From NCBI GenBank assembly GCA_027039295.1, contig JALWEW010000058.1:1-37636 (forward strand): a stretch of 37,636 nt of DNA, read 5' to 3'. This DNA comes from Acidilobaceae archaeon (GTDB lineage Archaea > Thermoproteota > Thermoprotei_A > Sulfolobales > Acidilobaceae). The position numbers and the translations under genes are program-made. Every line of letters begins with the position of its first letter. Positions within the stretch are counted from its first letter, which is position 1. This document shows positions 21 to 34,100 of this stretch, in pieces. Below the pieces are notes generated by a model. It saw only the letters and a list, made by a program, of their open reading frames with translations, was not told where the DNA came from and ran no database searches.

Positions 21-464
21 GTGGAGGACCGCGAGATCAGGGTTGAGGGGGCCCGGGGGGTCCTTGGGAGGGAGATCGTGCTAGACGCCGTTAAGCTGGC
101 GTTTAGGTGGGCCAACTGCGCCGGCTGCAGGGCCTGCGAGGCGAGCTGCCCGACCGGCTCGATAAGGGTGGAGGAGGCCCCTGGGGGCCGCTATAGGCCT
201 CGGGTCGATGCGTCTAAGTGCATCCACTGTAAGCTCTGCCTCGACAACTGCCCCCTAGCTGACGTTGTGGCCGAGAAGGTCTACGCCGCGCTCGCGCTTG
301 GCACGCCTCTGGCCTGGAGGAGGAGTGGGAGGCGGAGCCACGAGAGCGTCGTTGAGAGGTATCTGAAGCTCAAGGGCTATAGGATCCCGGGTGAAGGGGT
401 CGCCGAGGTCAGCGTTGATAGCCTCGTCGAGCCAGCCGCCCTCGAGGCAGGCGAGGAGGGCTAG
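21..464 (+). CDS. 4Fe-4S dicluster (ferredoxin-type) domain protein, possibly 5'-truncated by the window edge
   Basis: Two CxxCxxCxxxCP motifs (CAGCRACEASCP, CIHCKLCLDNCP). The frame stays open back to nt 3, so the true start may lie upstream of the window. GTG at 21. Confidence 0.7.
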   Translation: MEDREIRVEGARGVLGREIVLDAVKLAFRWANCAGCRACEASCPTGSIRVEEAPGGRYRPRVDASKCIHCKLCLDNCPLADVVAEKVYAALALGTPLAWRRSGRRSHESVVERYLKLKGYRIPGEGVAEVSVDSLVEPAALEAGEEG

Positions 465-3364
465 CCCCTCCTCTTCTCCCAGTACATCCTAGTAGAGTAG
501 TAGTTCTCCTCGGCCTCCATTATGGCCCTGTAGAACTCCCTCTCACCACCCATTATGAGCCTCTCCATAACCCTCTTGGCCTGGGACGGCCCAACACCCC
601 TTGCCGCCAGCGCCTCTACCACCCTGCGGCCGAGGCCCTGGAAGGCGTAGTGCATGTAGAGGCTCGCCCTCTCCCTAGCCTCTCTCACGAGCCGCTTCTC
701 CTCGCGGCTCAGCCTCCCACTCTTGAGGGCTTTGCGGACGGCCTCGACGACGCTCCGGCCCCAATCCGTCGCGGGTAGGGGCGCTATTGAGGGGTAGCCG
801 CAGCGCGGGCACCTGAGCGGGGCCCCCTCGGGGATCCTCGAGACCTCAGCCTCCCATGCGTGGCCGCAGTGGGTGCAGAGGAGTAGCACTCTCTTCCTCT
901 GGAGCCTCCTCTTTATGCCCTCAACGAGCTTGCCTAGGGCCACCTCCTTCAGGTTTACCGCTACGTCGCGCTTCATGTAGGGGTTCTCGAGGACGTTGAG
1001 GGCCAGGGGGGTCGCCTCCTCGAGCCTGATAGCAGCTGGCTCCTTCATCGAGTCGAGGAAGTCGTTTAGCGCTGCTAGGTCTAGCCTGTCGTGGACAAGC
1101 TCCTTGAGCACCTCCTTCTCGACTATCGAGCCACGGTAGGCCTCGAGGATCCTCCTGAGGAGGGAGGGGTTCGCGCGGGCGTCTGGCTCGAGTATGCCGA
1201 GCCTCCTTGCTACGTGGAGGAACCTATAGAGGAAGGCTTGGCTCCTCCTGAGGGCCTGGTAGACCATCCCCGCCCTAGTTATGTGGTCCATCTCCGAAGC
1301 CTCCCTGAGGGCCGAGAGCAGGAGGTCCGCGCTGACCCCCCTGCCGTCGGGTGTTGAGAGGACCACGGCGTATGGTATGTGATTGAAGGTCACCGCCACG
1401 CCCTTACCAGCCAGTATCTCGCTTAGAAGCAGAGCCAGGGCCATGTTGCCCTTGCTCCCCAGGCAGGCGTAGAGTATGGTGAGGGTCGGGTACTCCTCTA
1501 TGACCGGCCTCCGGGGCTCTAGGAAGGCGCCGCCCCACCTCTCAGCGGTGGCCCTGGCCTGCTCTATTATCCAGTCCACGGCGTCGCTGGGGATCCTCCT
1601 GGCCAGTAGGAGCCTCCTAGCTAGCCCCGGGTTGTCCATGGCTAGTGAGAGGAGGGCGCAGGCCTCCCTGGCGACCTTGTAGTCCACCGGTATTAGCTCG
1701 CCGTGCCAGACCGGTACGAGGCCCTGGGCCTCGGCCACGGGCTTCACGATTATCCTAGCGGCCTCATAGTCGACCTCCAGGGCCTCCCAGAGCCTGCCTG
1801 AGAGGACGAAGCGGAGCCTCTCCCCCTCCCTCAGGTTTAGGAGTGAGGCCTCCACGAATCTCTCACTCACCTCCCCGACCCTCCTGTCCTCTATAGCGTC
1901 TACCACGGTGTAGGTAGCCTCGTCGGGTATCATCGAGACCCCATAGACGTACCTCCTCGTCCTCCTCGTCTGCCTCAGTACCCCCGAGACCTCGTCGTAA
2001 CGCACGATCCTCACGGAGTCTAGGTGCACTGCTACCTCCTCGAGGAGGCTCATGTCTATGCCAGCGTACTGCCTGGTGGCCGCGGCTACCTCGAGGAATT
2101 CCCCTAGGGAGAGTGAGCCCCTCTCAACGGTCATGGCCGCCATCTGGTGCGCTAGAGGGCATACGAGTCCCCTCGGGGCTTTGAGGTCCTCGAGGTGGCC
2201 CTTCATGGTCCTGAATGCTATGACTCCCGACTCTAGTATCTCGTAGAGGTTCCTCGGGACCACTATCACGGCTCTGGCGGTGCTCCCGAGCCTGTGGCCG
2301 GCCCTGCCGCCTCTCTGGGTCATGGCTAGCACCTGGCGGGGCGACATGAATTGGACTACGAGGCTCACGGTTCCGATATCTATGCCCAGCTCCATGCTGG
2401 ACGTGGCTACCAGGACCTTGATCCTCCCCTCCTTGAAGAGCCTCTCCGCCTCCTCCCTCACACTCCTAGCGAGGCTCCCGTGGTGGACCCTCACCTTATC
2501 CACGCCCAGGATCCTCGCTAGCTCCGCGGCCAGCTTCTCCGCCGTGGAGCGCGTGTTAACGAAGACCAGCACCTGGCCCTCCACGGTCTCCACGATCTCG
2601 GCCACCCGCCTGACGAGCCTCGGCCAGTCCAGGCCCTCCGCATCGACTACGCTGACCGATACATCGTACTCCTTGCCGCTCCTGTCAACTACAACCTCCA
2701 CCCTGCGGTGGCCCGCTATGAGGCCGGCTGCCTCCCCCATGCTCTTCTCGGATAGCGTGGCTGAGAGGCCTATCCTCTGTATCCTACGGCCCGCCACCCT
2801 CTCGAGCCTCTCAAGGGTCAGCGAGAGCTCGGCCCCCCGCTCGCTGTCTATGAGCTCGTGTACCTCGTCAACTATAACCCAGCGCACCCCCCTCCAGATG
2901 CCCCTCCCAGCGGTGGCCGTTAGGAGCAGCGTGAGGGACTCGGGGGTCGTTACCATCAAGTCGGGAGGGTTCTGGAGGAATCTCCTCCTGCCCGATGGCC
3001 CCGTGTCACCGTGCCTCACCTGCACGGTGAAACCCGTGGCCTCCACTAGGCCGCGGATGCGGCGCTCGATGTCTCTATTGAGGGCCCTAAGCGGAGTCAC
3101 GTATATCGCCTTCAGGCCACGCGGGGAGGCCCCCCTATCCCTCATAGCCGACATGAGCGAGAGTACCGGTAGGAGGGCGGCCTCCGTCTTCCCTGACCCG
3201 GTTGGGGCCACCACGAGCGTGTGGGCCCCCCTTAGTATGACCGGTATAGACTTCTCCTGAATAGGCAGCAGGCCCCGATACCCCAGCCTGGCGAGTGCCT
3301 CTCTCACACGCGGGTGCAGCGCCTCTATGCTGCTGACTGTGGAGCCGGGCATCCCGTGGTGCAC
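461..3364 (-). CDS. lhr: Lhr-type SF2 DEAD/DEAH-box ATP-dependent helicase
   Basis: Q-motif LLPIQEKSIP, motif I APTGSGKTEAA, II DEVHEL, III SATL, VI QRGGRAGHR. About 970 aa with a long C-terminal extension typical of Lhr, and a CxxC..CxxC zinc ribbon (CTHCGH...CPRCG). Start is GTG 3364 or ATG 3352. Confidence 0.85.
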   Translation of the reverse strand: MHHGMPGSTVSSIEALHPRVREALARLGYRGLLPIQEKSIPVILRGAHTLVVAPTGSGKTEAALLPVLSLMSAMRDRGASPRGLKAIYVTPLRALNRDIERRIRGLVEATGFTVQVRHGDTGPSGRRRFLQNPPDLMVTTPESLTLLLTATAGRGIWRGVRWVIVDEVHELIDSERGAELSLTLERLERVAGRRIQRIGLSATLSEKSMGEAAGLIAGHRRVEVVVDRSGKEYDVSVSVVDAEGLDWPRLVRRVAEIVETVEGQVLVFVNTRSTAEKLAAELARILGVDKVRVHHGSLARSVREEAERLFKEGRIKVLVATSSMELGIDIGTVSLVVQFMSPRQVLAMTQRGGRAGHRLGSTARAVIVVPRNLYEILESGVIAFRTMKGHLEDLKAPRGLVCPLAHQMAAMTVERGSLSLGEFLEVAAATRQYAGIDMSLLEEVAVHLDSVRIVRYDEVSGVLRQTRRTRRYVYGVSMIPDEATYTVVDAIEDRRVGEVSERFVEASLLNLREGERLRFVLSGRLWEALEVDYEAARIIVKPVAEAQGLVPVWHGELIPVDYKVAREACALLSLAMDNPGLARRLLLARRIPSDAVDWIIEQARATAERWGGAFLEPRRPVIEEYPTLTILYACLGSKGNMALALLLSEILAGKGVAVTFNHIPYAVVLSTPDGRGVSADLLLSALREASEMDHITRAGMVYQALRRSQAFLYRFLHVARRLGILEPDARANPSLLRRILEAYRGSIVEKEVLKELVHDRLDLAALNDFLDSMKEPAAIRLEEATPLALNVLENPYMKRDVAVNLKEVALGKLVEGIKRRLQRKRVLLLCTHCGHAWEAEVSRIPEGAPLRCPRCGYPSIAPLPATDWGRSVVEAVRKALKSGRLSREEKRLVREARERASLYMHYAFQGLGRRVVEALAARGVGPSQAKRVMERLIMGGEREFYRAIMEAEENYYSTRMYWEKRRG

Positions 3365-8044: not shown

Positions 8045-8401
8045 TTACTTCTTCCTAGCCGCCTTCCTGCGCCTACGCTGCGTAGCCTTCCTCTTCCTCC
8101 TCTCCTTCTCCGTCGTATCTATGGCGACGGCCTCCACGGGGGCCTTGACCTTCTCTAGGTAGATCGCCTTCGCCTCGCCCGGCCTCAGCCTCCCCTCGGC
8201 TAGGGCCTCGAGGATCTCGACGGCCTCCGTGAATGCGTCCAGTAACTCCGGGACTACCGGGTGGTACAGGCCCACCTCGGCCTCAACGCTCTCCTCTGCG
8301 GCTCCGGCCTCCTCCTCGGGCTTCTCCGGCTTCGCCAGCTCTACACCTCCAGGCTCCGCGATTATCTCCTCTTCCTCCGTCTCCTCGGACTCCAGGATCA
8401 A
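8045..8401 (-). CDS. Small protein with an acidic N-terminus and a basic C-tail; possible RNA polymerase subunit Rpo13
   Basis: Acidic N-terminus ([13 protein letters not shown]...), a central helical segment ([32 protein letters not shown]) and a basic tail ([20 protein letters not shown]). Start refined to TTG 8401, preceded by GGAGGTGG (8409-8416) 7 nt upstream. The ORF-track start at 8530 would overlap the ileS ATG and the shared TATA. Confidence 0.5.
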
Positions 8402-8440
8402 TGCTGTTCCACCTCCTAGAGGGTGGCCTGTGGGCCCAGG

Positions 8441-8450
8441 ATTTAAAATA
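8441..8450. promoter_or_regulatory. TATA box (ATTTAAAATA) in the divergent Rpo13-like / ileS spacer
   Basis: A strong near-palindromic TATA, the only AT-rich element between TTG 8401 (minus) and ATG 8520 (plus). Confidence 0.5.
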
Positions 8451-8519
8451 GGTATTTCGAGGCGCTCACCCACACGCCTCCCCCTACTTGGGGGCGTGGG
8501 GTGCGCCTGGTTGCCTCCG

Positions 8520-11500
8520 ATGCGTGACACGCTCAGCAGGGAGCGCTACGACCAATTCGCCTTGGAGGAGTGGGTTAAGAGGTATTGGGAGGAGCATTCG
8601 ATATACAGGCTGGTCAAGGAGAAGAGCCTCAAGAGCAGCAGGAAGCTCTACTTCCTCGACGGTCCCCCCTACACGAGCGCTCCAACGATCCACGTGGGGA
8701 CCGCGTGGAACAAGGTGATCAAGGACACACTACTACGCTACTATAGGATGATGGGCTTTAACGTCTGGGACAGGCCCGGCTTCGACACGCATGGCTTACC
8801 CATAGAGGTTAAGATAGAGCAGAAGCTGGGGATCAAGAATAAGGGGGAGATAGTCGAGAAGGTGGGGGTAGCGCGCTTCGTAGAGGAGTGCAGGAGGTTC
8901 GCCGAGGAGAACATGCGGGGCCAGATGGAGAAGTTCAAGGAGCTAGGCGTCTTCATGGACTGGGATAACCCCTACGTTACCTTCAGGGACGAGTACATAG
9001 AGTCTGGCTGGTGGCTCATAAAGAAGGCGTGGGAGAGGGGCCTCCTAGAGCAGGACGTATACGTGGTCCACTGGTGCCCGAGGTGCCAGACTACTCTAGC
9101 TGACTACGAGGTATCCGAGTACAGGGTCCTGGAGGACCCCTCGATCTACGTGAAGTTCCCTGTGAAGGGCCGCGAGGGCGAGAGCCTCCTGATATGGACC
9201 ACCACTCCCTGGACCCTCCCAGCCAACGCCTTCGTGATGGCCCACCCGGACCTAACCTACGTGAGGGTGAGGGTCGGCGGGGAGGTGCTCATACTGGCGA
9301 AGGCCAGACTCGAGGCCGTTATGAGCGAGGCGGGGGTAAGGGAATATGAGGTGATCGAGGAGTTCCCTGGCCGCGACCTAGAGGGCCTCGAGTACCGGCA
9401 CCCCCTCGAGGGCCTTGTAGATGCTCAGAGGATCCTGGCCCCCTACCATAAGGTGGTAATGGCGCCCGAGGCCGTCACGCCCCACGAGGGCACCGGGCTG
9501 GTCCACTCTGCCCCCGGCCACGGCGATGTCGACTTCGAGGTGGGCAAGAGGCTTGGAGTACCGATAGTATCCCTCGTCGGCGACGACGGCCGAATGCTCC
9601 CCGAGGCCGGTAAGTACGCCGGCCTCTACTTCAGGGGGGAGGCCAATGAGAGGATAATAGAGGACCTAAGGAGGCTCGGGGCCCTCTTCCACGAGGGGAG
9701 GGTGAAGCACAGGTACCCCGTGTGCTGGAGGTGCAAGACCCCCCTACTGCTGAGGGCGACTAGGCAGTGGGTGATAAGGGTCTCCAAGCTCAGGGACGAG
9801 CTGATGAAGAGCGCCGAGAGCGTGGAGTGGATCCCCTCGTGGGCCAAGGAGAGGTTCATGCACCTGCTCAGGAACATCAGGGACTGGGTCATAAGCAGGC
9901 AGCGCTTCTGGGGCGTCCCACTCCCGATATGGGTCTGCGAGTCCTGTGGCTACAAGGTTGTCGTGGGCAGCGTCGAGGATCTCGAGAAGCTAGGCGGCAA
10001 GAGGCCCAAGGAGCTTCACAGGCCCTGGGTCGACGAGGTCACGCTCAGGTGCCCCAAGTGCGGGGGCGTCATGAGGAGGGTGCCGGACGTGGCCGACGTG
10101 TGGTTCGACAGCGGGATCTCCTTCTACGCCAGCCTCGGGTACCCGAGGAGGAGGGACCTCTGGGAGAGGCTCAGGCCGGTAGATTATATAGTAGAGGGGC
10201 ACGACCAGATCAGAGGGTGGTTCTTTAGCCTCCTCAGGAGCGGCGTGATCGGCTTCGGTGAGTCGCCCTACCGAAGGGTCCTGGTGCACGGCTTCGCCCT
10301 CGACGAGCAGGGCAGGGAGATGCACAAGAGCCTGGGTAACTACATAGACTTCGACGAGCTGATAAGCAGGATACCTAGGGACGTCGTGAGGCTCTGGACT
10401 ACAAGCAACACCGTCTGGGAGGACCTCCGCTTCTCCTGGCGCGGCATGGAGATGATGTGGAAGGACTTCACTGTGATCTGGAATGTCTTCTCCTTCGCGA
10501 GCATGTACATGGGTCTCGACGGCTTCGACCCCAAGAAACACAGCATAGAGAGCCTCCGGGATAGCCTCAGAGTCGAGGATAGATGGGTGATCTCGAGGGT
10601 TAACTCGTTCCTAAGAGAATACCACAAGGCAATGTCGGGCCTCCTAATACACGAGGCAGCCAGGGCCCTAAGGAGATTCATCCTGGAGGATGTCAGCCAC
10701 TGGTACCTCCGTCTCATAAGGCGCAGGGTCTGGACCGACGAGGAGACACCAGACAAGCTAGCGGCCTACACCACGCTCTACTATGTCCTCAGGAGATGGC
10801 TCCTGGCGGCGGCGCCCTTCATACCATTCTTCACCGAGTACGTGTATCAAAAGCTCTTCAGGGAAGCCGAGGAGGGCCCGGAGTCCGTCCACCTGCTAGA
10901 CATGCCGGAGGCTGACGTCAGCTTAATAGATGAGAGCCTAGAGGACGAGATGGAGAGGGTCAAGGCCGTCGTCGAGGCCGCGAGGGCCGCAAGGATGAAG
11001 GCCGGGCTCAAGCTCCGGAGGCCCGTCTCCCGGGTGATAGTTGTCACCGAGGACGAGAGGACCCGCAAGGCTGTGGAGGACCTATCAGACATAGTCAGGG
11101 GCGAGGCTAACGCTAGGGAGGTTGTGGTTGCTGGTAGGGAGTTCCTCGAGGAGGTACGAGTTTACAAGGTCGAGCCGAACTATAGGGAGATAGGGCCTGA
11201 GTACAAGAGGGATGCCCCCAAGGTCTACAGGCTCCTCGAGGAGAGGAGCGAGGAGGTCGCTAGGGCCCTAGTCTCGAGGGGCTTCTACGAGGCCGAGTAT
11301 GAGGGTGTGAAGGTCAGACTAGAGCCGAGGCACGTGAGGCTCCACGCCGAGTACCCAGAGTGGCTGAGCGTTGCTGAGGGCGAGGGCTTCACGGTGGCGG
11401 TCGACACTAGAGTGGGCCGCGAGGAGCTGCTGGAGGGCCTGGCGAGGGAGGTTGTTAGGAGGATCCAGTTCATGAGGAAGGAGGCTGGCCTGGATGTGAC

Positions 11501-11705
11501 CGACTACATCGAGGCGTGGATCTCGGGGGACAGTGAGATACTAGAGGCCGTGAGGGAGAAGCTCGACTACGTCTCGAGCGAGACGAGGGCCTCCACGATA
11601 AGATTCGATAAACCCCCGGCCACCGCCTATACTAGGGAGTGGGAGGTGGACGGGAAACGAGTACTGATAGGGATAAAGAGGGTAGGAGCCACCAGGTCTA
11701 CATAG
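8520..11705 (+). CDS. ileS: Isoleucyl-tRNA synthetase
   Basis: Class I motifs [17 protein letters not shown] and [10 protein letters not shown], Zn-binding CPRCQT / CWRCKT / CESCG / CPKCG, and the [11 protein letters not shown] editing-domain signature. Start refined from 8229 to ATG 8520 ([13 protein letters not shown]...), giving 1061 aa. Confidence 0.95.
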
Positions 11706-12406
11706 TATGGCCCAGCGACCTCCATAGACTCGGCTACTGCCCCCGGCTTCTATTCTTCGAGACCCACCTACCCCGGCGCCGGGGGCTCGGTGAGAGGCTC
11801 AGGCTCCTCCTTGGGAGGCTCTACCACGCGGTGCTCTCGCTGCCCCTACGCCTCAGGGGCTTCAGGGTAGAGGAGCCCCTCGAGGTCAGGCTGGGTAATG
11901 TGGTGCTTAGGGGGAGGAGCGACGCCCTAGCCCTCCGCGGCGGGGCCGTCCATGTCGTCGAGAGGAAGAGCGGCAGGGCGCCCCGCAGAGTGGCGTGGCC
12001 CAGCGACATCCTCCAGGCGGCGGCCTACGGCTTCATGGCGCTGAGGCTCGGCATGGCCTCGGACGCCCTCCTGGACATAAGGTATAGGGACGCCTCCTAC
12101 ACCTACAGGCTCGACAGCGAGACCGTCAGTGCAGTCCTCAGGGCCGTGGATGACGTTGTCGAGATAAAGTACTGGGGCATCGTCGGCTACCCCAGGAGGA
12201 GCCGGGGACGATGCTCCCGGTGCCCATACCGGGCTCTCTGCGAGTCCCTTGACAGGGAGCTCGCGCCCCCCGAGAAGGGCGAGGTCTACGAGCCCGGCGA
12301 GTGGCTGGCGAGGGAGCGCTTAAGCCCTCCAAGCGCCTCCGGGGCCACCCAGGGAGCCAGTGGAGATGGCGCATACCCATCCGGAGAGGGACCCCATAGA
12401 GGCTAA
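11639..12406 (+). CDS. Cas4-family (DUF83) PD-(D/E)xK 4Fe-4S exonuclease, solo (no cas/CRISPR context)
   Basis: N-terminal Cys (GYCPR, tgc 11738-11740), D (RSDAL, 11921), ExK (VERK, 11960-11968), QxxxY (QAAAY) and CX2CX5C ([10 protein letters not shown], 12212-12241). The only in-frame canonical start upstream of the conserved N-terminal Cys motif is GTG 11639, 67 nt inside ileS. Confidence 0.8.
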
Positions 12407-13307
12407 GGTAGCTGAGATATACGGCGATGTGGCCAGGCCCAGGGAGCCCGTTCGGAGCCCCAGCCTGGCCGTGAAGGTCTTAGAGAGGGAGTTCAGGCTC
12501 ATAGTCGACGAGAGGATAGTGGCCCTCACCTACGCCGCCTTCATGAATGGGAGGCCCGTCCTCTTCGAGGGCCCGCCCGGCACGGGTAAGACTGAGGTGG
12601 GCGAGGCCCTCCTCGAGCTCTGGGCTGGGAGGAAGCCCTTCCTGCTCCCCTGCAGTGAGAACTACGATGAGTACAAGGTCATAGGCGACTTCCACCCACT
12701 GATAGCGATGCGGAAGGGGTTCAACGAGGAGTCCTTCATCCCGCGTCCACTCCTCGCAGCGTTAATCCTCGACGCCGGCGTCCTCGTAGATGAGATTAGG
12801 AGGAGCAGCGAGGACTTCCAGAACATGCTACTAGACGTGGTTGATAAGCGCAGGATAATAGTGCCAGAGCTGAAGAGGGTCTTCAGGGCGAGGGGCCCCG
12901 GCTTCCAGGTCATATTCACGAGTAACCCCGAGGATATAGCGCAGAACGAGCTGAGCGATGCCTTCCTGAGGAGGGTCGTCAGGATACCCTTCGACTACCC
13001 CCCACGGGAGGTTGAGGCTAGAATCATAAGGCTGCGCAGCGACAGCGAGCCCAGGCTGGACTCCAACGTGATGAACCTGATCCTCGGCACACTGGAGAAG
13101 CTGAGGAGGTCGGGGCTCTCCCACAAGCCCGGGACCGCGGAGGCTGTAGCCTGGGCCAGGATGGCGCAGGCCCTAGCGAGGCTGAGGGGTAGGAGCGTCG
13201 TCTCCCTGGAGGACGCCTATGATGCCGCCATGGGCGTACTCGTGAAGCGCGTTGAGGACGAGGAAATCGTTGACTCCGTGCTGAGGGAGGAGTTCGGCCT
13301 TGCCTAG
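12360..13307 (+). CDS. MoxR-class AAA+ ATPase (CbbQ/NorQ/CoxD-like, AAA_5-type)
   Basis: Walker A GPPGTGKT (12570-12593), Walker B VLVDEIRRS followed by NMLLDVVDKRRI, and sensor region IFTSNPED. GTG 12360 or ATG 12366 lies inside the Cas4-like 3' end. Confidence 0.85.
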   Translation: MEMAHTHPERDPIEAKVAEIYGDVARPREPVRSPSLAVKVLEREFRLIVDERIVALTYAAFMNGRPVLFEGPPGTGKTEVGEALLELWAGRKPFLLPCSENYDEYKVIGDFHPLIAMRKGFNEESFIPRPLLAALILDAGVLVDEIRRSSEDFQNMLLDVVDKRRIIVPELKRVFRARGPGFQVIFTSNPEDIAQNELSDAFLRRVVRIPFDYPPREVEARIIRLRSDSEPRLDSNVMNLILGTLEKLRRSGLSHKPGTAEAVAWARMAQALARLRGRSVVSLEDAYDAAMGVLVKRVEDEEIVDSVLREEFGLA

Positions 13308-15291
13308 GTACAGCGTTGAAACAGTCATAGACCTGCTGCCGGGGCTGGCGGAGGCCCTCAGGCGCAGGGGGCTGAGAATAGGCACCAGCCAGCTCGTGGA
13401 GGCCGCGAGGCTCCTCAAGAGCTACTCCGCCCTGGAGGCCCGCGAGTACCTTGACGAGGAGGAGGTCTCGCTCGTGCTCGGGGCTGCCCTCTCGCTGAGG
13501 GGCGGTCACGCTGAGGCCCTCAGGGACGAGTTGAGGGGGCTACTTGTAGCAGCCAGGCTGGATGAGGCGGCCCGGGGGATCCAGGAGGAGATAAATGAGA
13601 GGCTCTCCGCGCTGGGCCTCAAACCCGGAGCCAGGGTCGTTAAGAAGAGGATCCTGGGCGGGGGGCCTAAGAGGAGGGAGAGGGTAGCCGCCTACCTCGA
13701 GCTGAAGAGGGTCGGGGTAATAAGAGGCCCCAGGGGGAGGGAGAGGGTAGCCGGGGCAGCTGAGATCTCAGTCATATCTAAGAGACTGGCGAGGCTGGGC
13801 TACCGGAGCATCGAGGACGCAGCGAGGGAGGCTGGCAGAGCGTGGGGCGAGGACGACATAATGCTCCACGCCGAGGCCAGGCTCGGCGCTGGCCGCGAAC
13901 TGGGAGACATGGACACCGACAGGCTCCTCAAGCTAGGGGAGGCGGCCCTCAGGAAGGGGGATCGCAGGCTCCTGAGGAGCGTTGCGGAGGAGCTTGGAAG
14001 GAGGATCCTGAGGGGCGAGAGGGTAGACTCCGAGAAGAGCCTCGAGATACTGCGGAGAGCCGGTGCCCTCAGCCCTGCCCACGAGCGCGCGCTGCTCCGC
14101 AGAGAGCCCGACTTAGTGGCGGCCTCCACCCTCCCGCCGAGGGAGCTGGCATCGCTCGCGGAGAGCCTTGGCGCCGAGAGGGGCGGCCTCCTCGTGTCGA
14201 AGGCCCTCAAGAGGCTAGGCATCGGGGCTGCGAGGGAACTCGTAGCCAACCTCGACCCCGCGCTCCTATGGGCAGTTAAGAAGCACCCCCTCCGGGGCCC
14301 CGAGGCCTCACTCGTGGACGCGGCGGCCAAGGCTTCTAGGAGCCTCAGGGAGGCCCTCCTCTACGCTGAGACAGGCGAGCCGGGTAGGGCTGACATGGCT
14401 AGGGACCTAGCCTCTAGGAGCCTGGAGGCCCTAGAGGCCCTGGGGGACCCGAGGCTCGGCAGGCTTAGCCGCGGCGAGGTCGAGGCGCTGGCGTCGATGG
14501 CCCTGGCTATAGTTGACGCCCTAGAGGCCCGGGGTCCGGAAAGCGTCGAGGGCCTAGCGGCTACCCTCAGGAGGCTGGGACTACCGAGGGCCCTCCAGGT
14601 CCTGAGGGGCCTCTACTCGAGGGTCACCCCCGAGGCTAGGGGGCTCGTCGCTAGGGCGGCCGCCTCCCTGCTCTACAGGTTCGCTTCACGCGAGGGCCTG
14701 AGGCTACTGCCGAGGAGGCTCACAGCCACGCACGGCCCGGGCAGGCTCGAAGTGCGCCACACGATCTACAGGCTCGGCAGGCTCGCCCAGGACCCCCTAG
14801 TCTTCAGGAGGAGGCTGAGGAGCCGGAGCATAGGCCTTGCCCTCGACGTGAGCGGGAGCATGATTGAGCATAGCGTGTGGGCCCTGAGCATAGCGGTCCT
14901 ATTCGCCTCCAACATAGATAGGCTGGTGCTCTTCTCAGCCGAGCCCACAGTCCTCGAGGGGCCCTTCACCCCCATCCAGCTGGCGGAGACCCTCCTATCC
15001 GCCAGGTTCGCCGGCTACACCGACATCGCCGGCGCCCTGGAGGCCCTCGGAGGCTCGAGGGGGGCGAGGAGGCTCGTGTTGGTGTCGGATCTCAAGCAAA
15101 CCCTCGAACCCGGCGACCCCGTGGCTGCGGCTGCGTCCCTGGTTAGGAGGGGCTTCAAGCTCCTCGCAATAACGCCGCCGCTCCACGACGCGGCCACGCG
15201 GAGGAGGCTCGAGGAGGTCGGGGTGAGGGTTAGGGTAGCGTATACCCCGAGGGACGCCGCGAGGGAGGTGCTAAGGAGCCTCCTGAGGTGA
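13300..15291 (+). CDS. von Willebrand factor A protein, CoxE/NorD-like, with a ~480-aa helical N-terminal region
   Basis: CoxE-like N-terminus (LAEALRRRGLRIGTSQLVEAARLL). The C-terminal vWA domain carries MIDAS DVSGSM (14845-14862), GYTDIAGAL and LVLVSD. TTG 13300 overlaps the MoxR stop by 8 nt. Confidence 0.8.
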   Translation: MPRYSVETVIDLLPGLAEALRRRGLRIGTSQLVEAARLLKSYSALEAREYLDEEEVSLVLGAALSLRGGHAEALRDELRGLLVAARLDEAARGIQEEINERLSALGLKPGARVVKKRILGGGPKRRERVAAYLELKRVGVIRGPRGRERVAGAAEISVISKRLARLGYRSIEDAAREAGRAWGEDDIMLHAEARLGAGRELGDMDTDRLLKLGEAALRKGDRRLLRSVAEELGRRILRGERVDSEKSLEILRRAGALSPAHERALLRREPDLVAASTLPPRELASLAESLGAERGGLLVSKALKRLGIGAARELVANLDPALLWAVKKHPLRGPEASLVDAAAKASRSLREALLYAETGEPGRADMARDLASRSLEALEALGDPRLGRLSRGEVEALASMALAIVDALEARGPESVEGLAATLRRLGLPRALQVLRGLYSRVTPEARGLVARAAASLLYRFASREGLRLLPRRLTATHGPGRLEVRHTIYRLGRLAQDPLVFRRRLRSRSIGLALDVSGSMIEHSVWALSIAVLFASNIDRLVLFSAEPTVLEGPFTPIQLAETLLSARFAGYTDIAGALEALGGSRGARRLVLVSDLKQTLEPGDPVAAAASLVRRGFKLLAITPPLHDAATRRRLEEVGVRVRVAYTPRDAAREVLRSLLR

Positions 15292-15300
15292 GGCTCCAAC

Positions 15301-15308
15301 AATAAAAG
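15301..15308 (+). promoter_or_regulatory. TATA box (AATAAAAG) of the ribosomal protein operon
   Basis: Lies 10 nt after the vWA stop. Its centre is ~28 nt upstream of GTG 15333, consistent with a leaderless S19 transcript. Confidence 0.5.
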
Positions 15309-15332
15309 CCCCTCGGGTGTCGCAGTGCCGGA

Positions 15333-15782
15333 GTGGGTGGGTGCTGGAGGGTGACGCTTGAAATCCCGCCAGAGTGGCGTAGGTTCCGCTACAGGGGTAG
15401 AAGCCTAGAGGAGCTAATGCAGATGTCTATCGAGGACCTAGCGAAGCTCATGCCGGCCAGGCAGAGGAGGAGCCTGCTGAGGGGGTTCACGCCGGCCCAG
15501 CGTAAGCTGCTGGCTAAGATCAGGAAGGTTAGGAGGAAGCTGGAGGAGGGCAAGCTGAAGAGGCCACCAGTCATAAGGACCCACGTGAGGGACATGATAG
15601 TCCTCCCCGAGATGGTTGGGCTCACGATAGCCGTATACAACGGCAAGGAGTTCGTGCCGGTCAGGATCACGCCTTGGATGATAGGCCACTATCTGGGAGA
15701 GTTCAGCCACACGACGAAGATCGTGCAGCACGGAGAGCCGGGCCTGAAGGCCACTAGGAGCAGCCTGCACATAGGCAAGTAG
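15333..15782 (+). CDS. rps19p: 30S ribosomal protein S19 (uS19)
   Basis: [19 protein letters not shown] and [27 protein letters not shown]. Alternative GTG start at 15351. Confidence 0.95.
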
Positions 15783-29782: not shown

Positions 29783-30196
29783 CTAAAGGCACTTGACACT
29801 GCACTCCTCAGGCTCTAGTCTCCCCCTCCTAGGCCTGTAGGCGCCTATACCTAGGGGCGAGGCTATGACCCATATGATGGGCCAGAGCCTCATATTATCG
29901 ACGTCCCGGCTGGAGGGCCTCGGCGGCCCGGCGGGGTGGGTGTGGAACACTCCAACCACATCCACTCCCAGACCCCAGGCGGCCTTGTGGGCGGCTACCA
30001 CGTCCAGAGGGTCGGACTCGAAGCTCCGCGGCTCAAGAGAGAGGTTCCTAACAGCGTAGTAAGCTACCACCTTGTAGACGCCCCGAGCGCCCGCGTAGCC
30101 CATAAGGAGGCCCACTCTCTCGGGCACGCCCAGGCCCGCCAGCAGAGCCAGGAGCCTGCAGAGGGGGCCTAGGTCAACCACGCATTCACCGCTCAC
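29783..30196 (-). CDS. JAB1/MPN/Mov34 (JAMM) metalloprotease-domain protein
   Basis: JAMM motif FHTHPAGPPRPSSRD (HxH-x7-S-xx-D) with the upstream E in PERVGLLMG. The GTG start overlaps the upstream stop (GTGA). Confidence 0.8.
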   Translation of the reverse strand: MSGECVVDLGPLCRLLALLAGLGVPERVGLLMGYAGARGVYKVVAYYAVRNLSLEPRSFESDPLDVVAAHKAAWGLGVDVVGVFHTHPAGPPRPSSRDVDNMRLWPIIWVIASPLGIGAYRPRRGRLEPEECSVKCL

Positions 30197-30723
30197 CCTT
30201 TAGGCACCTCGAGGATCCAGGCCCTGAGGGTCTCGGTGTCGAGGAGCGCCGCGGTGGCCCTGCCTGTGAGCACCCCCGAGGCCTCGCCGGGGTTCAGCAG
30301 TAGAATGCCCCTAATGTACCTGTAGTCGACCTCGTGCGTGTGGCCATAGAGCACTGCGTCCCAGGAGCCGCTCGCGGCAAGCGCCTCTACGATCCTACGC
30401 GTGAGACCCGCCGAGCCCCAGCCATGCACTAGTAGGATCCTCCTGCCATCAAGCTCTAGCTCAACGGGCGGATCGCTTATCGCAGCCCCCGAGGCCTCCG
30501 CCACCTCGCGGAGCCTCATCTTCTCGCCACAGTTATTCCCATAGACCGCCCTGAACTCTACATCGCCCGGCAAGGCTCCTACGATGGCCGCCAGGGTGAA
30601 CGGCGACACTATGTCGCCTAGGTGCACTATTAGCCTAGCCCCTCTCTCCACGAGCATCCTCGCAGCGGCAACCGCGAGCCGGACGTTATCGTGGGTATCA
30701 CTCAGCACCCCCACCAGCACCAC
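30193..30723 (-). CDS. MJ0936/YfcE-family metallophosphoesterase
   Basis: LSDTHDN, HLGDIVSP, YGNNCGE, LVHGW and YGHTH motifs. GGAGGTG SD (30731-30737) 7 nt upstream of GTG 30723. Confidence 0.85.
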   Translation of the reverse strand: MVLVGVLSDTHDNVRLAVAAARMLVERGARLIVHLGDIVSPFTLAAIVGALPGDVEFRAVYGNNCGEKMRLREVAEASGAAISDPPVELELDGRRILLVHGWGSAGLTRRIVEALAASGSWDAVLYGHTHEVDYRYIRGILLLNPGEASGVLTGRATAALLDTETLRAWILEVPKG

Positions 30724-31107: not shown

Positions 31108-34100
31108 CTAAAAGTACTCTTCCTGCTCTGATAGCCTCTCCGCTATCACCGACTTGACCTTCCAGAGGACCGCTATCAGAGCTATTAACCCAGTTATCCC
31201 GACGAAGAGCGGCGTCATTCTCTTAACCACTGTGAGCGGCGTCGGGTACACTGTTAGTGTAACTGACTTCTGACGCGGGACCTCTATGTAGATGCTGGCG
31301 GGCTTGTAGGCGCTCTGGGCTACGGAGACCTGGTAAATCCCATAGTACGCCTTTAACGCCACGGAGCCACTCTTCGATGTTAAGCCACTCGCCACGACTG
31401 CGTGGGTCCTAGTGTCTATTAGCTCTACTAGGGCGCCAGCCACTGGCTCTGACCTATCATTGACCACCATAACTGTGACCGTGTACTGCCTCGGTTTCAG
31501 CGTTATGTTAATCAGCTCGCCGTTCCTATCGACCCTGAATGTTATCGATGAGGGCAGTACGTAGTAGTCCTGCGAGACCGGCTTGAGCTTACAAGTGTAG
31601 ACGCCGTAGGGGAGCGTTAGGTTCGCCTTCCCGCCTTTTATAGTGACTGTCGTTGGATACCTCACGAGGGGCGGCTTCGCCGCGCCTTGCCTGGACAGCT
31701 CTAGTTTATAGGGGAAGGGTATAGGTTTCTTGAACAGGTAGTCCTTGAGTAGTATAGTCACATTATACGATTTATATGGCAGGATGACCTGGGTCTCGTA
31801 TCCCTTGAGACCGACTGTGATCGTGAACTCTACGGGTTCAAGCGGCGTCTTCGGGGGCGGTGTTACTATTACCTTATAGTGCCCGATCCTAACACCGCCG
31901 CGGGGGCTTACAGTCCCGTTTACGGATACCATCGGTGGGGGCGAGAGCTGCGGCATCTGGTATACGAGTTTAACAAGGGCGCCATCCACTCTATTGCCGT
32001 CTGGGTCTAGTATTACGAGTTTGAGTGGAGCTAAGACCGGGTCAAGTTTAACCTTGACTTCATTGGGGCTCAGTAAGTCTAGCTGGAGCGTCGATGGCTT
32101 ATAGTACTTCGCGGTCACTTCGAGTGTATAGGCCCCCGCCGGCACACTAAGCTCTAGCTCGCCGCTCTCGGCCTTGCCCTGCAGCGTGCCGCTCCCATAG
32201 GGTCCCTCGTAGATTAGGGAGACGTTGGCGTTAATCGGCGTGTGCAGCTGTGAATCGAAGACCCTAAGCGTCAGCGTTACCGTGGGCGGTGTGATGTTGA
32301 ACTCCAGCTTGAGGGGCCTATCCACGGTGAGGTTCCCATCTAGGATCACAGGCTCCCTCATGCCGGGGCCCCATGCTAGTATTGTGTAGTTGCCGTAGCG
32401 TAGCCTGAGGAGCGCCTCCCCCTTGGTGGTGGTGTGAGTTATCGTCTTCCCGATCTCGAGGGGGCGCTTGGGGGCGGCTATGATCGTGAGGTTTGATGCA
32501 CTACCCTCAAGCCATGTGGGCCCTAGTACTTTTAAGGTGATGCTCACAGTGTAGTTCACGGCCTGTAAGTCGAAGACCACACTCTCGTTACCGGCAACGA
32601 CTAGTGTCGCGGTGGTGTTCAGATAGTGTGGCTTGGATATCCTGATCAGGTACTCACCCACTGGTAGCTCCATCTCATAGCCGCTTGAGGCTACTAGCCT
32701 CCCGGTCAGGGGGAACCCATTCCAGCTCTCAAAGTAGAGGGTCACATTAGCAAGCCTGTTATAGGGTGGGGCTAGATCGGGGTCGCGGAAGGAGACGCCT
32801 ATAGTGTAGAGTATGGGCTTGAGCGCGATCTTCAACTGAGAGGTCTTGAATGCATCAATGTAGCCCTTCACCCCCTGATAGCCCTGCCTGGATACTGTGT
32901 AAGCGTAGACGCCGGCTCTAACGGTCAGCGTCACCGAGCCATCAGGCCCCGTCGACGCCTCTACAGCGGGGGCCCCTACGGCCTTGAGTATCGGGTCTTC
33001 GGGTTCCAGCACTATCGAAGCATTAGCCAGAGGTCTTGATGGTATAGTTATGGTTGCGTTAACTGGCTGGTTGTAGACCGCCACCGCCAAGTGGACGAGT
33101 AGGGGATCCATCTTTATGACCTCGCTTACGCTGCTATTAGGCGTGGCTATGAATGACCCCGAGGCCTCGTAGTAGTGGGGCTCGTAAGCGGTTACCGTAT
33201 AGACTCCCGCCGGCATCTCGAAGGACCCTGTGCCACTTGGGAGTAGCAGGCTTATCCTCTTGCCAGGGCCTATGCCGCTATACTCTAATAGCAGCTGGAC
33301 CCCGGGTACGGGGCGGCCCGTTTGGGCGTCCGAGGCCGTTATGTTGATCAGCGTATAGGCCGGGTGCACAGTATAAGACAGGGTCAGCGGGGAGCCTACG
33401 GCCACCTCGAAGGTCTCAGGCTGCGCATAGGGGTGCTCGACCTGCACTAGGTAGACGCCCCTCCTGAGGTTGAGCGTCACTGCCCCCGAGGCGTCGGTGT
33501 AGCCCGTGACGGGTTTCAGTGGGAGAGCGGGGCTTAGGATCTTCACGGTGACGAGCGCCTCTTGGAGTGGTCCCTCGGCGAGGTGCCACTTCGGGTCGGT
33601 TACTACGAACCTTAGTTTTACTTGATACTTTAACGGTGTCATGTAGATCTTGAGTGTATACTCGCCCGTGAACACGGCGTAGGAGTCCGGCCCATACACC
33701 TCGTAGCCGGGTGCCTCCGCTACTATCTTGTAGAGCCCGTAGGGTAGCGTTAGGCTGGTGGTCCCGTTGCGCGCTTCCACGACGAGAGAACCGCCGCCGG
33801 CGGTGCTAGCATAGGCTAGCATGACCGTGGCGTTACCCGCCATGACTCCTGCTGAGTAGAGTTCGGAGTCATAGATGACTATCCTAACATGCGAGTAGAG
33901 CGGTTTGAGTATCACGCGCAGTTCTTCCAGCGAGGGCGTGATATTTACATACTCAACGTAGTCTCCCGTGATGGGGCTGCTCACCTCTAGCTTGTAGAGG
34001 CCGACCCTGAGGGAGAGCCTGGCCACGCCGTTCTCGTCGGTTAGGCCCGTGAATGTCCTGTTGAGCGGTGGCTCGATGAGACTCAGGCTCACGCGGGCCC

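Follow-up and report, generated by a model that had tools for sequence, protein, structure and literature searches.

Does the Cas4-family nuclease encoded in contig JALWEW010000058.1 of an Acidilobaceae archaeon (GenBank assembly GCA_027039295.1; 37,636 nucleotides, referred to here as the window) act together with the MoxR-class AAA+ ATPase and the von Willebrand factor A (vWA) protein encoded directly downstream of it? Genes for solo-Cas4 are found in most archaeal genomes and are vertically inherited, their function is unknown (PMC5704561; PMC12501428), and the enzymes may need an as yet unknown partner (PMC12501428). A conserved partner would therefore matter, and a first-pass annotation of the window had proposed one in the form of a nuclease module gated by the ATPase and the vWA protein. 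From the gene anatomy, the protein families, and the gene neighborhoods of related loci, we conclude that the supposed three-gene module most likely amounts to two distinct gene pairs lying next to each other by chance. The cluster would then consist of two independent units side by side in a housekeeping block, ileS (isoleucyl-tRNA synthetase) with a solo cas4 gene and a chaperone pair of AAA+ and vWA genes (the AAA-vWA pair), a reading to which we assign a probability of roughly 0.55. The apparent MoxR-vWA partner of Cas4 is probably only a neighbor, and the link that recurs for this Cas4 clade is the one to ileS, by way of overlapping genes.

Organization of the ileS-cas4-AAA-vWA cluster

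All four genes lie on the plus strand with no intergenic DNA between them. The open reading frame (ORF) map matched exactly the four-ORF anatomy, coordinates, and overlaps (67, 41 to 47, and 8 nt) given in the first-pass annotation. The features of the cluster are as follows.

8520..11705, plus strand: ileS, isoleucyl-tRNA synthetase; likely start near 8520, TAG stop at 11703-11705
11639..12406, plus strand: solo cas4, predicted 4Fe-4S PD-(D/E)xK nuclease gene of the Cas4 family; 255 aa, GTG start, TAA stop at 12404-12406
12360..13307, plus strand: MoxR-class (AAA_5) AAA+ ATPase gene; 315 aa, start at GTG 12360 or ATG 12366, TAG stop at 13305-13307
13300..15291, plus strand: CoxE-type vWA gene; 663 aa, TTG start at 13300, 8-nt overlap with the ATPase stop
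13300..14709, plus strand: basic, all-helical N-terminal domain of the vWA protein (aa 1-470), from the AlphaFold2 (AF2) model and charge
14689..14811, plus strand: linker of the vWA protein (aa ~464-504) between the helical and vWA domains, from invariant columns and low predicted local distance difference test (pLDDT) scores
14812..15291, plus strand: vWA domain with a complete metal ion-dependent adhesion site (MIDAS), PF05762; DVSGS at aa 516-520 (nt 14845-14859), T574, D597
15292..15332, plus strand: 41-nt spacer from the vWA gene to the S19 gene, with the AT-rich, TATA-like element AATAAAAG at 15301-15308, read directly
15333..15782, plus strand: ribosomal protein S19, which opens the downstream ribosomal protein operon (L22, S3, L29, Rpp29, S17 onward)

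The ileS start is approximate because its ORF is open from position 8229. The start of cas4 sits 67 nt within the 3′ end of ileS; upstream of the YCPR motif, GTG 11639 is the sole in-frame ATG, GTG, or TTG codon of cas4, and as it is the only usable start, the 67-nt overlap is real. The ATPase gene in turn overlaps cas4 by 47 nt if it begins at GTG 12360 or by 41 nt if it begins at ATG 12366. A GATAAA sequence ~27 nt 5′ of GTG 11639 was considered as a cas4 promoter inside the 3′ end of ileS and was rejected, as it lies in coding sequence and its position is not conserved in relatives. The proteins of the window are 98 to 100% identical to those of contig L008 of the metagenome-assembled genome “Candidatus Calypsonella navitae” (Thermoprotei).

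Gene order ties cas4 to ileS and the AAA-vWA pair to ribosomal protein genes

About 30 related loci were gathered from the Cas4, vWA, and ATPase sides, and five genes were mapped in them by tblastn, which yielded distinct sets of 23 cas4 loci and 14 AAA-vWA loci. The scan of metagenomes with the ATPase alignment was hampered by the pattern EGPPGTGK, which proved too generic: it returned 3 orthologous loci along with ~70 unrelated MoxR loci, the latter showing the usual short CoxE partners. Directly 5′ of cas4, ileS was present in 21 of the 23 distinct cas4 loci (the exceptions being L001 and L010), with ileS homologs 54 to 98% identical in 24 loci; the Pfam families precomputed for orthologs are tRNA-synt_1 and Anticodon_1. 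The spacing between the two genes ranged from a 67-nt overlap to a 32-nt gap at 24 of 24 junctions measured (duplicate copies of some loci included), and an ATGA-type 4-nt overlap was the commonest form. With its start overlapping or abutting the ileS stop, cas4 is probably translated from the ileS mRNA through translational coupling. In several Cas4 orthologs, the N-terminal “GGGRET” corresponds to the ileS 3′ end in another reading frame.

The coupling of ileS with solo cas4 was more widespread than the link to MoxR. In 12 of the 23 distinct cas4 loci, the AAA-vWA pair was absent within ~10 kb; in the other 11, it lay directly downstream of cas4. An unfiltered search with a Cas4 hidden Markov model found no cas4 within 8 to 9 kb of the AAA-vWA pair in three lineages (the L026/L101 type, Pyrolobus fumarii L100, and L105). 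On a neighbor-joining tree of ileS, computed with no bootstrap, the AAA-vWA loci were paraphyletic and the cas4-only loci fell into at least three separate groups; the junction between cas4 and the AAA gene therefore broke at least three times independently. After each of these breaks, cas4 stayed with ileS, and its downstream neighbors now are of four different kinds: argS, FtsY, a CARDB-like gene, and a Csa3-like helix-turn-helix gene. The ileS-cas4 junction itself broke twice (L001 and L010), cas4 remaining with the AAA-vWA pair both times. The cas4-AAA junction is no more stable than the ileS-cas4 or vWA-S19 junctions, and gene order backs a link of Cas4 to MoxR-vWA no more than one of Cas4 to IleRS or of the vWA protein to S19. 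Moreover, the 41- to 47-nt overlap of cas4 with the AAA gene is limited to the close clade of the window (the window, L001, and L009), outside of which the two genes are separated by a gap of 22 to 100 nt that is AT-rich and carries TATA-like stretches in several lineages. L018, where only ileS-cas4 was found, and L026, where only the AAA-vWA pair was found, share an unusually low GC content (0.37), which is only a hint as to whether cas4-only genomes carry the AAA-vWA pair elsewhere.

The stable gene-order partner of the AAA-vWA pair is the ribosomal protein cluster (L2, then AAA-vWA, then S19), not cas4. The start-stop overlap of the AAA and vWA genes was present in all 14 distinct loci and is the only junction never broken; S19 followed the vWA gene directly, on the same strand, in 12 of the 14, and its orthologs were 69 to 100% identical. 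The L2/S19 junction is normally contiguous in archaeal ribosomal protein operons. In two lineages, the pair lies between these two genes (positions 7959-10821 of L026 and 9001-11836 of L101; positions 9001-11951 of L105). The low-GC type represented by L026 and L101 has the order L3-L4-L23-L2-Cren7, a small opposite-strand gene, and then AAA-vWA-S19-L22-S3. In L105, the group L2-ferredoxin-AAA-vWA-S19 is intact while L3-L4-L23 and L22-S3 have been relocated. Pyrolobus fumarii 1A (L100) has ileS, a small opposite-strand gene, and the AAA-vWA pair, with L2 and S19 1.7 kb off on the other strand. The neighbors of the pair in the window and the related loci are ileS, cas4, L2, and S19, and no gene for CO dehydrogenase (cox), NOR, Rubisco, or another metalloenzyme client was found in the window or these loci. 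One relative only, L002, carries an 854-aa ORF with no Pfam match inserted between the vWA and S19 genes (positions 10213-12777).

Synteny reaches beyond the three genes, to PCNA, DUF72, and MazE-ACT genes upstream and the whole ribosomal protein operon downstream, and the block is vertically inherited in Thermoprotei of the Desulfurococcales/Acidilobales type. The TATA-like element AATAAAAG in the spacer lies ~29 nt 5′ of the S19 start, where it may act as a promoter; the same aacaataaaagc is present in L009.

The Cas4-family protein is a typical solo-Cas4

The Cas4 assignment and the complete motif signature noted in the first-pass annotation held up in profile searches and in the alignment. 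The protein passed the thresholds of both TIGR00372 (72.6 bits; cutoff, 65) and PF01930 (23.7 bits; cutoff, 22.7), matched Cas4 models of PADLOC with E values down to 9e-21, and matched the solved Cas4 structures 4r5q (Pcal_0546) and 4ic1 (SSO0001). The RecB-type site (D95, E108, K110, Q126, and Y130) and the cluster cysteines (C34, C192, C195, and C201) were invariant in an alignment of 20 orthologs. As the annotation had also reported, the window contains neither a cas gene nor a CRISPR array: no tandem or CRISPR-like repeats were found in it, and no cas domains were found in the neighboring genes of the window or in the 23 related loci. Association with cas1/cas2 or a CRISPR array is what sets CAS-Cas4 apart from solo-Cas4. 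With no cas genes nearby, the protein is therefore classed as solo-Cas4, and on its sequence it appears to be an ordinary archaeal member of that group (predicted 4Fe-4S RecB-like nuclease).

The likeness to the archaeal solo-Cas4 family (COG1468/DUF83; Hudaiberdiev et al. 2017, PMC5704561) extends from the profile thresholds, RecB motifs, and four cluster cysteines to a location outside any CRISPR-cas locus and vertical inheritance within an archaeal order. Unlike other solo-Cas4 genes, cas4 here is coupled to ileS in nearly every relative, by an arrangement that suggests translational coupling, and encodes a clade-specific C-terminal extension with the motif E-[VI]-Y-E-P-G-x-W-L. This motif is conserved in the Cas4 clade, C-terminal to CX2CX5C (window positions 12240-12406, aa ~205-255), with E218 and G220 invariant and a variable low-complexity tail after it, and it is equally present in Cas4 genes with or without an AAA-vWA neighbor. 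The words “synthetase,” “isoleucyl,” and “MoxR” are absent from the text of the 2017 solo-Cas4 survey (PMC5704561), and the ileS-cas4 coupling across an archaeal order appears to be undescribed in the literature searched.

The AAA-vWA pair combines a conserved MoxR-class ATPase with a long vWA partner

The MoxR-class call for the ATPase was borne out by its AAA_5 score (66.9 bits) and intact Walker motifs. Walker A (GPPGTGKT, residues 71-78, nt 12570-12593), Walker B (D144/E145 in VDEI, nt 12789-12794), and sensor 1 (TSN) all fell in invariant columns, and a profile search returned 388 matches at E < 1e-20. Across lineages, the ATPase was 56 to 85% identical with more than 100 invariant columns. 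In the comparison of the related loci, its identity was 60 to 85%, as opposed to 33 to 61% for Cas4 and 26 to 65% for the vWA protein. By this measure the ATPase appears to be conserved at the level of ribosomal proteins and to evolve like a core housekeeping gene. Its nearest bacterial relatives, ~30% identical, are encoded beside short VWA_CoxE partners of 274 to 379 aa.

Attempts to place the ATPase in a narrower family were less informative. It matches phrog_16448, an ATPase family, and NCBIfam NF047784 (“MadB family AAA-type ATPase”) scored higher than any other named family; its 103.5 bits are far under the cutoff of 475, and we leave the match unexplained. No description of a MadB-family ATPase was found in the literature searched. 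The weak matches to DUF5682 and GvpN extend over no more than the lid or the core and score under or close to threshold; they were set aside as uninformative.

The vWA protein matches VWA_CoxE (PF05762) at 36.9 bits (cutoff, 26.4) over residues 471-632. Its MIDAS residues D516, S518, S520, T574, and D597 lie in invariant columns, and DxSxS is kept in 11 of 11 homologs tested, consistent with the earlier call of a CoxE-type vWA domain with a full MIDAS. The length of the N-terminal region, which the first-pass annotation had flagged as unusual, is a conserved property: an exhaustive profile search recovered 140 clusters, of which 115 had E < 1e-10, mostly 620 to 710 aa long and aligned from end to end, as opposed to the 274 to 379 aa of the partners of the bacterial relatives. 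The named homologs belong to the Desulfurococcales and Caldisphaeraceae.

In the AF2 model of the full-length protein (pLDDT, 81.5), residues 1-465 are all helical, residues 470-497 are predicted to be disordered, and a canonical vWA fold follows; modeled alone, the N-terminal domain is likewise all alpha-helical (pLDDT, 87.3). This domain is basic in 11 of 11 homologs, with a net charge of +8 to +26 and an isoelectric point of 9.5 to 10.8. The fold search that had been proposed for it turned up nothing significant in the PDB; what it returned were generic solenoids (best E value, 0.047). The vWA domain, for its part, matches the folds of TFIIH p44/Ssl1 and integrin I domains. The linker between the domains scores below 50 in pLDDT at residues 470-497, a prediction of disorder, yet it contains many invariant positions (R464-R472 and P480-V485; sequence REGLRLLPR...PGRLEVR...DPLVFRRRL) and lies inside the VWA_CoxE profile match.

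Relationship to known systems

MoxR-vWA pairs are client-specific remodeling machines, and midasin, their eukaryotic relative, acts in ribosome assembly. Solo-Cas4 genes and MoxR-vWA pairs are each already known kinds. With CoxD/CoxE, NorQ/NorD, and CbbQ/CbbO, the pair shares a two-gene layout in which the ATPase stop overlaps the start of the vWA gene behind it, an AAA_5 core whose Walker A and B motifs are intact, a VWA_CoxE partner with a full MIDAS, and a conserved flexible linker before the vWA domain. It differs from them in the size of the partner, which is 565 to 713 aa here against 274 to 379 aa in the nearest relatives because of the basic 470-aa helical N-terminal domain with no significant fold match. 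It differs also in its ribosomal protein context, and its similarity to NorQ and CbbQ amounts to only ~33 bits per domain. The putative placement of the ATPase with CoxD/CoxE (APE2220 type, Snider & Houry) reflects the VWA_CoxE partners beside its ~30%-identical relatives. In the literature searched, there appears to be no description of a long-form vWA partner of this type, with its new basic helical domain, or of an AAA-vWA pair attached to the L2/S19 junction.

Midasin/Rea1, the eukaryotic ribosome assembly ATPase of the AAA_5 type, likewise joins AAA_5 modules to a long helical stretch and a C-terminal MIDAS domain, whereas the archaeal system comprises two polypeptides and a single AAA module. 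As the closest relative of the ATPase, midasin was rejected. Its 85.9 bits, the top PDB profile match, are the sum of six AAA modules of at most ~27 bits each, against 33 for NorQ/CbbQ; since the per-module scores are no better than that of NorQ, there is no specific relationship beyond the MoxR-midasin clade, which is already known (PMC3495828). The genomic tie to ribosomal proteins nonetheless suggests a kind of client comparable to that of midasin.

Ro60/Rsr (TROVE; RNA quality control) shares the order of helical repeats followed by a vWA/MIDAS domain, as well as a basic helical domain. Ro60 was the top Foldseek match in the PDB for the full-length vWA model (E ~3e-5 over ~540 aligned columns), with TM-scores of 0.2 to 0.3. 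The N-terminal domain alone gave no significant match (its best E value being the 0.047 cited above), Ro60 was outside the top 50, and no TROVE Pfam match was obtained, and we therefore regard the likeness as architectural only and reject homology.

The MoxR and vWA core is also found in the MoxR-vWA ternary conflict systems (Kaur et al. 2020, PMC7159879) and in the ATV p618/ORF892 pair; ATV ORF892 was the top BFVD fold match (E value, 6e-5). In contrast to conflict systems, the pair has no third variable effector and no PADLOC match, and bpMoxR matched only at an E value of 0.011. PADLOC defense models gave no match for the vWA protein and noise-level matches only for the ATPase (E value, 0.002 or weaker). 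The context is one of core housekeeping genes, and the high conservation and vertical inheritance of the ATPase are the opposite of what characterizes a diversifying conflict system.

Proposed functions and alternative explanations

How might the two units work? Cas4, probably translated from the ileS transcript via translational coupling, would presumably process DNA ends in repair or recombination with no need of the ATPase. The AAA-vWA pair would be a CoxD/CoxE-class (MoxR-vWA) chaperone encoded by two genes under translational coupling. In NorQ/NorD, the ATPase hexamer takes hold of the vWA protein by an extension and remodels the linker of that protein (PMC13036017). If NorQ/NorD and CbbQ/CbbO are taken as models, the AAA+ hexamer here may grip and pull the conserved linker of the vWA protein, while the MIDAS site would hold an acidic residue of the client and the basic 470-aa helical domain would dock it. 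As for the client, our best guess is that it belongs to the translation apparatus, to which the gene order weakly points, and is a large assembly of proteins or of RNA and protein.

Several observations weigh against this picture. On the side of the client, gene order is the sole ground for the link to translation, ribosomal protein operons also house unrelated housekeeping genes, and the spacer before S19 carries a TATA-like element of its own. On the side of cas4, the gene lies directly 5′ of the AAA-vWA pair in 11 of the 14 distinct AAA-vWA loci, at Cas4 identities down to 33%, and the order cas4-AAA-vWA persists without ileS in L001 and L010. Within the clade of the window, cas4 and the AAA gene are very probably cotranscribed, because they overlap by 41 to 47 nt (window, L001, and L009). 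The bacterial relatives, moreover, include ADH-MoxR-vWA trios, in which the presumed client is encoded just 5′ of MoxR, and these set a precedent for Cas4 as a client. Such points, and the partner that solo-Cas4 enzymes may need (PMC12501428), speak for a single module of Cas4, AAA+, and vWA proteins, in which the nuclease would be gated or recruited for repair or genome conflict or would be matured, by Fe-S or metal loading, by the MoxR-vWA pair. We consider such a module quite unlikely. The adjacency is indeed not confined to close relatives and is kept without ileS in two loci; the genes nevertheless sit apart in the three lineages with no cas4 within 8 to 9 kb of the pair and in the 12 of 23 cas4 loci that lack a neighboring AAA-vWA pair, which in part is the outcome that the first-pass annotation had named as refuting its idea. 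Three or more breaks have occurred at the cas4-AAA junction, whose stability does not exceed that of the adjoining ones, the EVYEPGxWL motif is independent of an AAA-vWA neighbor, and PADLOC shows no defense match above noise for a pair whose ATPase appears to evolve like a core housekeeping gene. The proposal of a gated nuclease thus found no support beyond inherited synteny, and no result beyond inherited gene order points to Fe-S or metal loading of the nuclease; the fallback offered with them, that cotranscription with ileS would favor a housekeeping role, is the best fit to the neighborhood data.

It is also possible, though in our view doubtful, that all four adjacencies (ileS-cas4, cas4-AAA, AAA-vWA, and vWA-S19) represent frozen synteny in slowly rearranging hyperthermophile genomes, with only the AAA-vWA association functional and its client encoded elsewhere and unrelated to Cas4 or translation, for instance a metalloenzyme as in CoxD/CoxE, NorQ/NorD, or CbbQ/CbbO. 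The syntenic block spans many genes on both sides, the vWA domain matches VWA_CoxE, S19 appears to own its TATA-like element, and the known clients of characterized MoxR-vWA pairs are metalloenzymes or Rubisco (PMC3893208; PMC13036017), all of which would be expected under this explanation. It accounts less well for L105, in which L2, the AAA-vWA pair, and S19 stay together despite a scrambled ribosomal protein operon, and for the second lineage with the pair inside the L2/S19 junction. Furthermore, the N-terminal domain is consistently basic and solenoid-like, unlike the short CoxE/NorD partners, and no candidate metalloenzyme gene recurs in the neighborhoods. A bolder version of the translation link would make the AAA-vWA pair an archaeal, two-polypeptide counterpart of Rea1/midasin that is encoded between L2 and S19 and uses its basic helical arm to remodel ribosomal subunits or ribosomal protein assemblies; we hold this to be improbable. 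Should the cas4 link be functional as well, a DNA nuclease expressed by translational coupling from an ileS operon would add a further novelty.

On the reading that we prefer, that of two independent units, an archaeal pair tied to ribosomal genes is a concrete candidate for an ATP-driven remodeler of ribosomes or ribonucleoproteins in archaea.

Other genes in the window

The remaining genes of the window are core housekeeping genes, including those for an Lhr-type helicase, MazE-ACT, DUF72, PCNA, a large ribosomal protein operon, and citrate synthase. The large Lhr-type helicase (461-3364, minus strand; DEAD, Helicase_C, DEAD_assoc, and WH_Lhr), of a DNA repair type, lies ~8 kb 5′ of cas4 in the same conserved block. 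Adjoining genes for a prokaryotic JAB-domain protein (137 aa) and a calcineurin-like phosphoesterase (176 aa) occupy 29783-30723 on the minus strand; a Metallophos gene is also found a few kilobases from cas4 in L003 and near the AAA-vWA pair in L105. Antisense to the region 5′ of ileS, and overlapping the ileS ORF where it extends far upstream, is a 161-aa ORF (8045-8530, minus strand) with an acidic low-complexity N-terminal part, a helical C-terminal part, a Lys/Arg-rich tail, and no Pfam match, which either encodes a genuine small basic protein or is open only because of the high GC content. Finally, a 1903-aa ORF with CarboxypepD_reg, PEGA, and Ig-like domains (31108-36819, minus strand) probably encodes a large surface or S-layer-associated protein.

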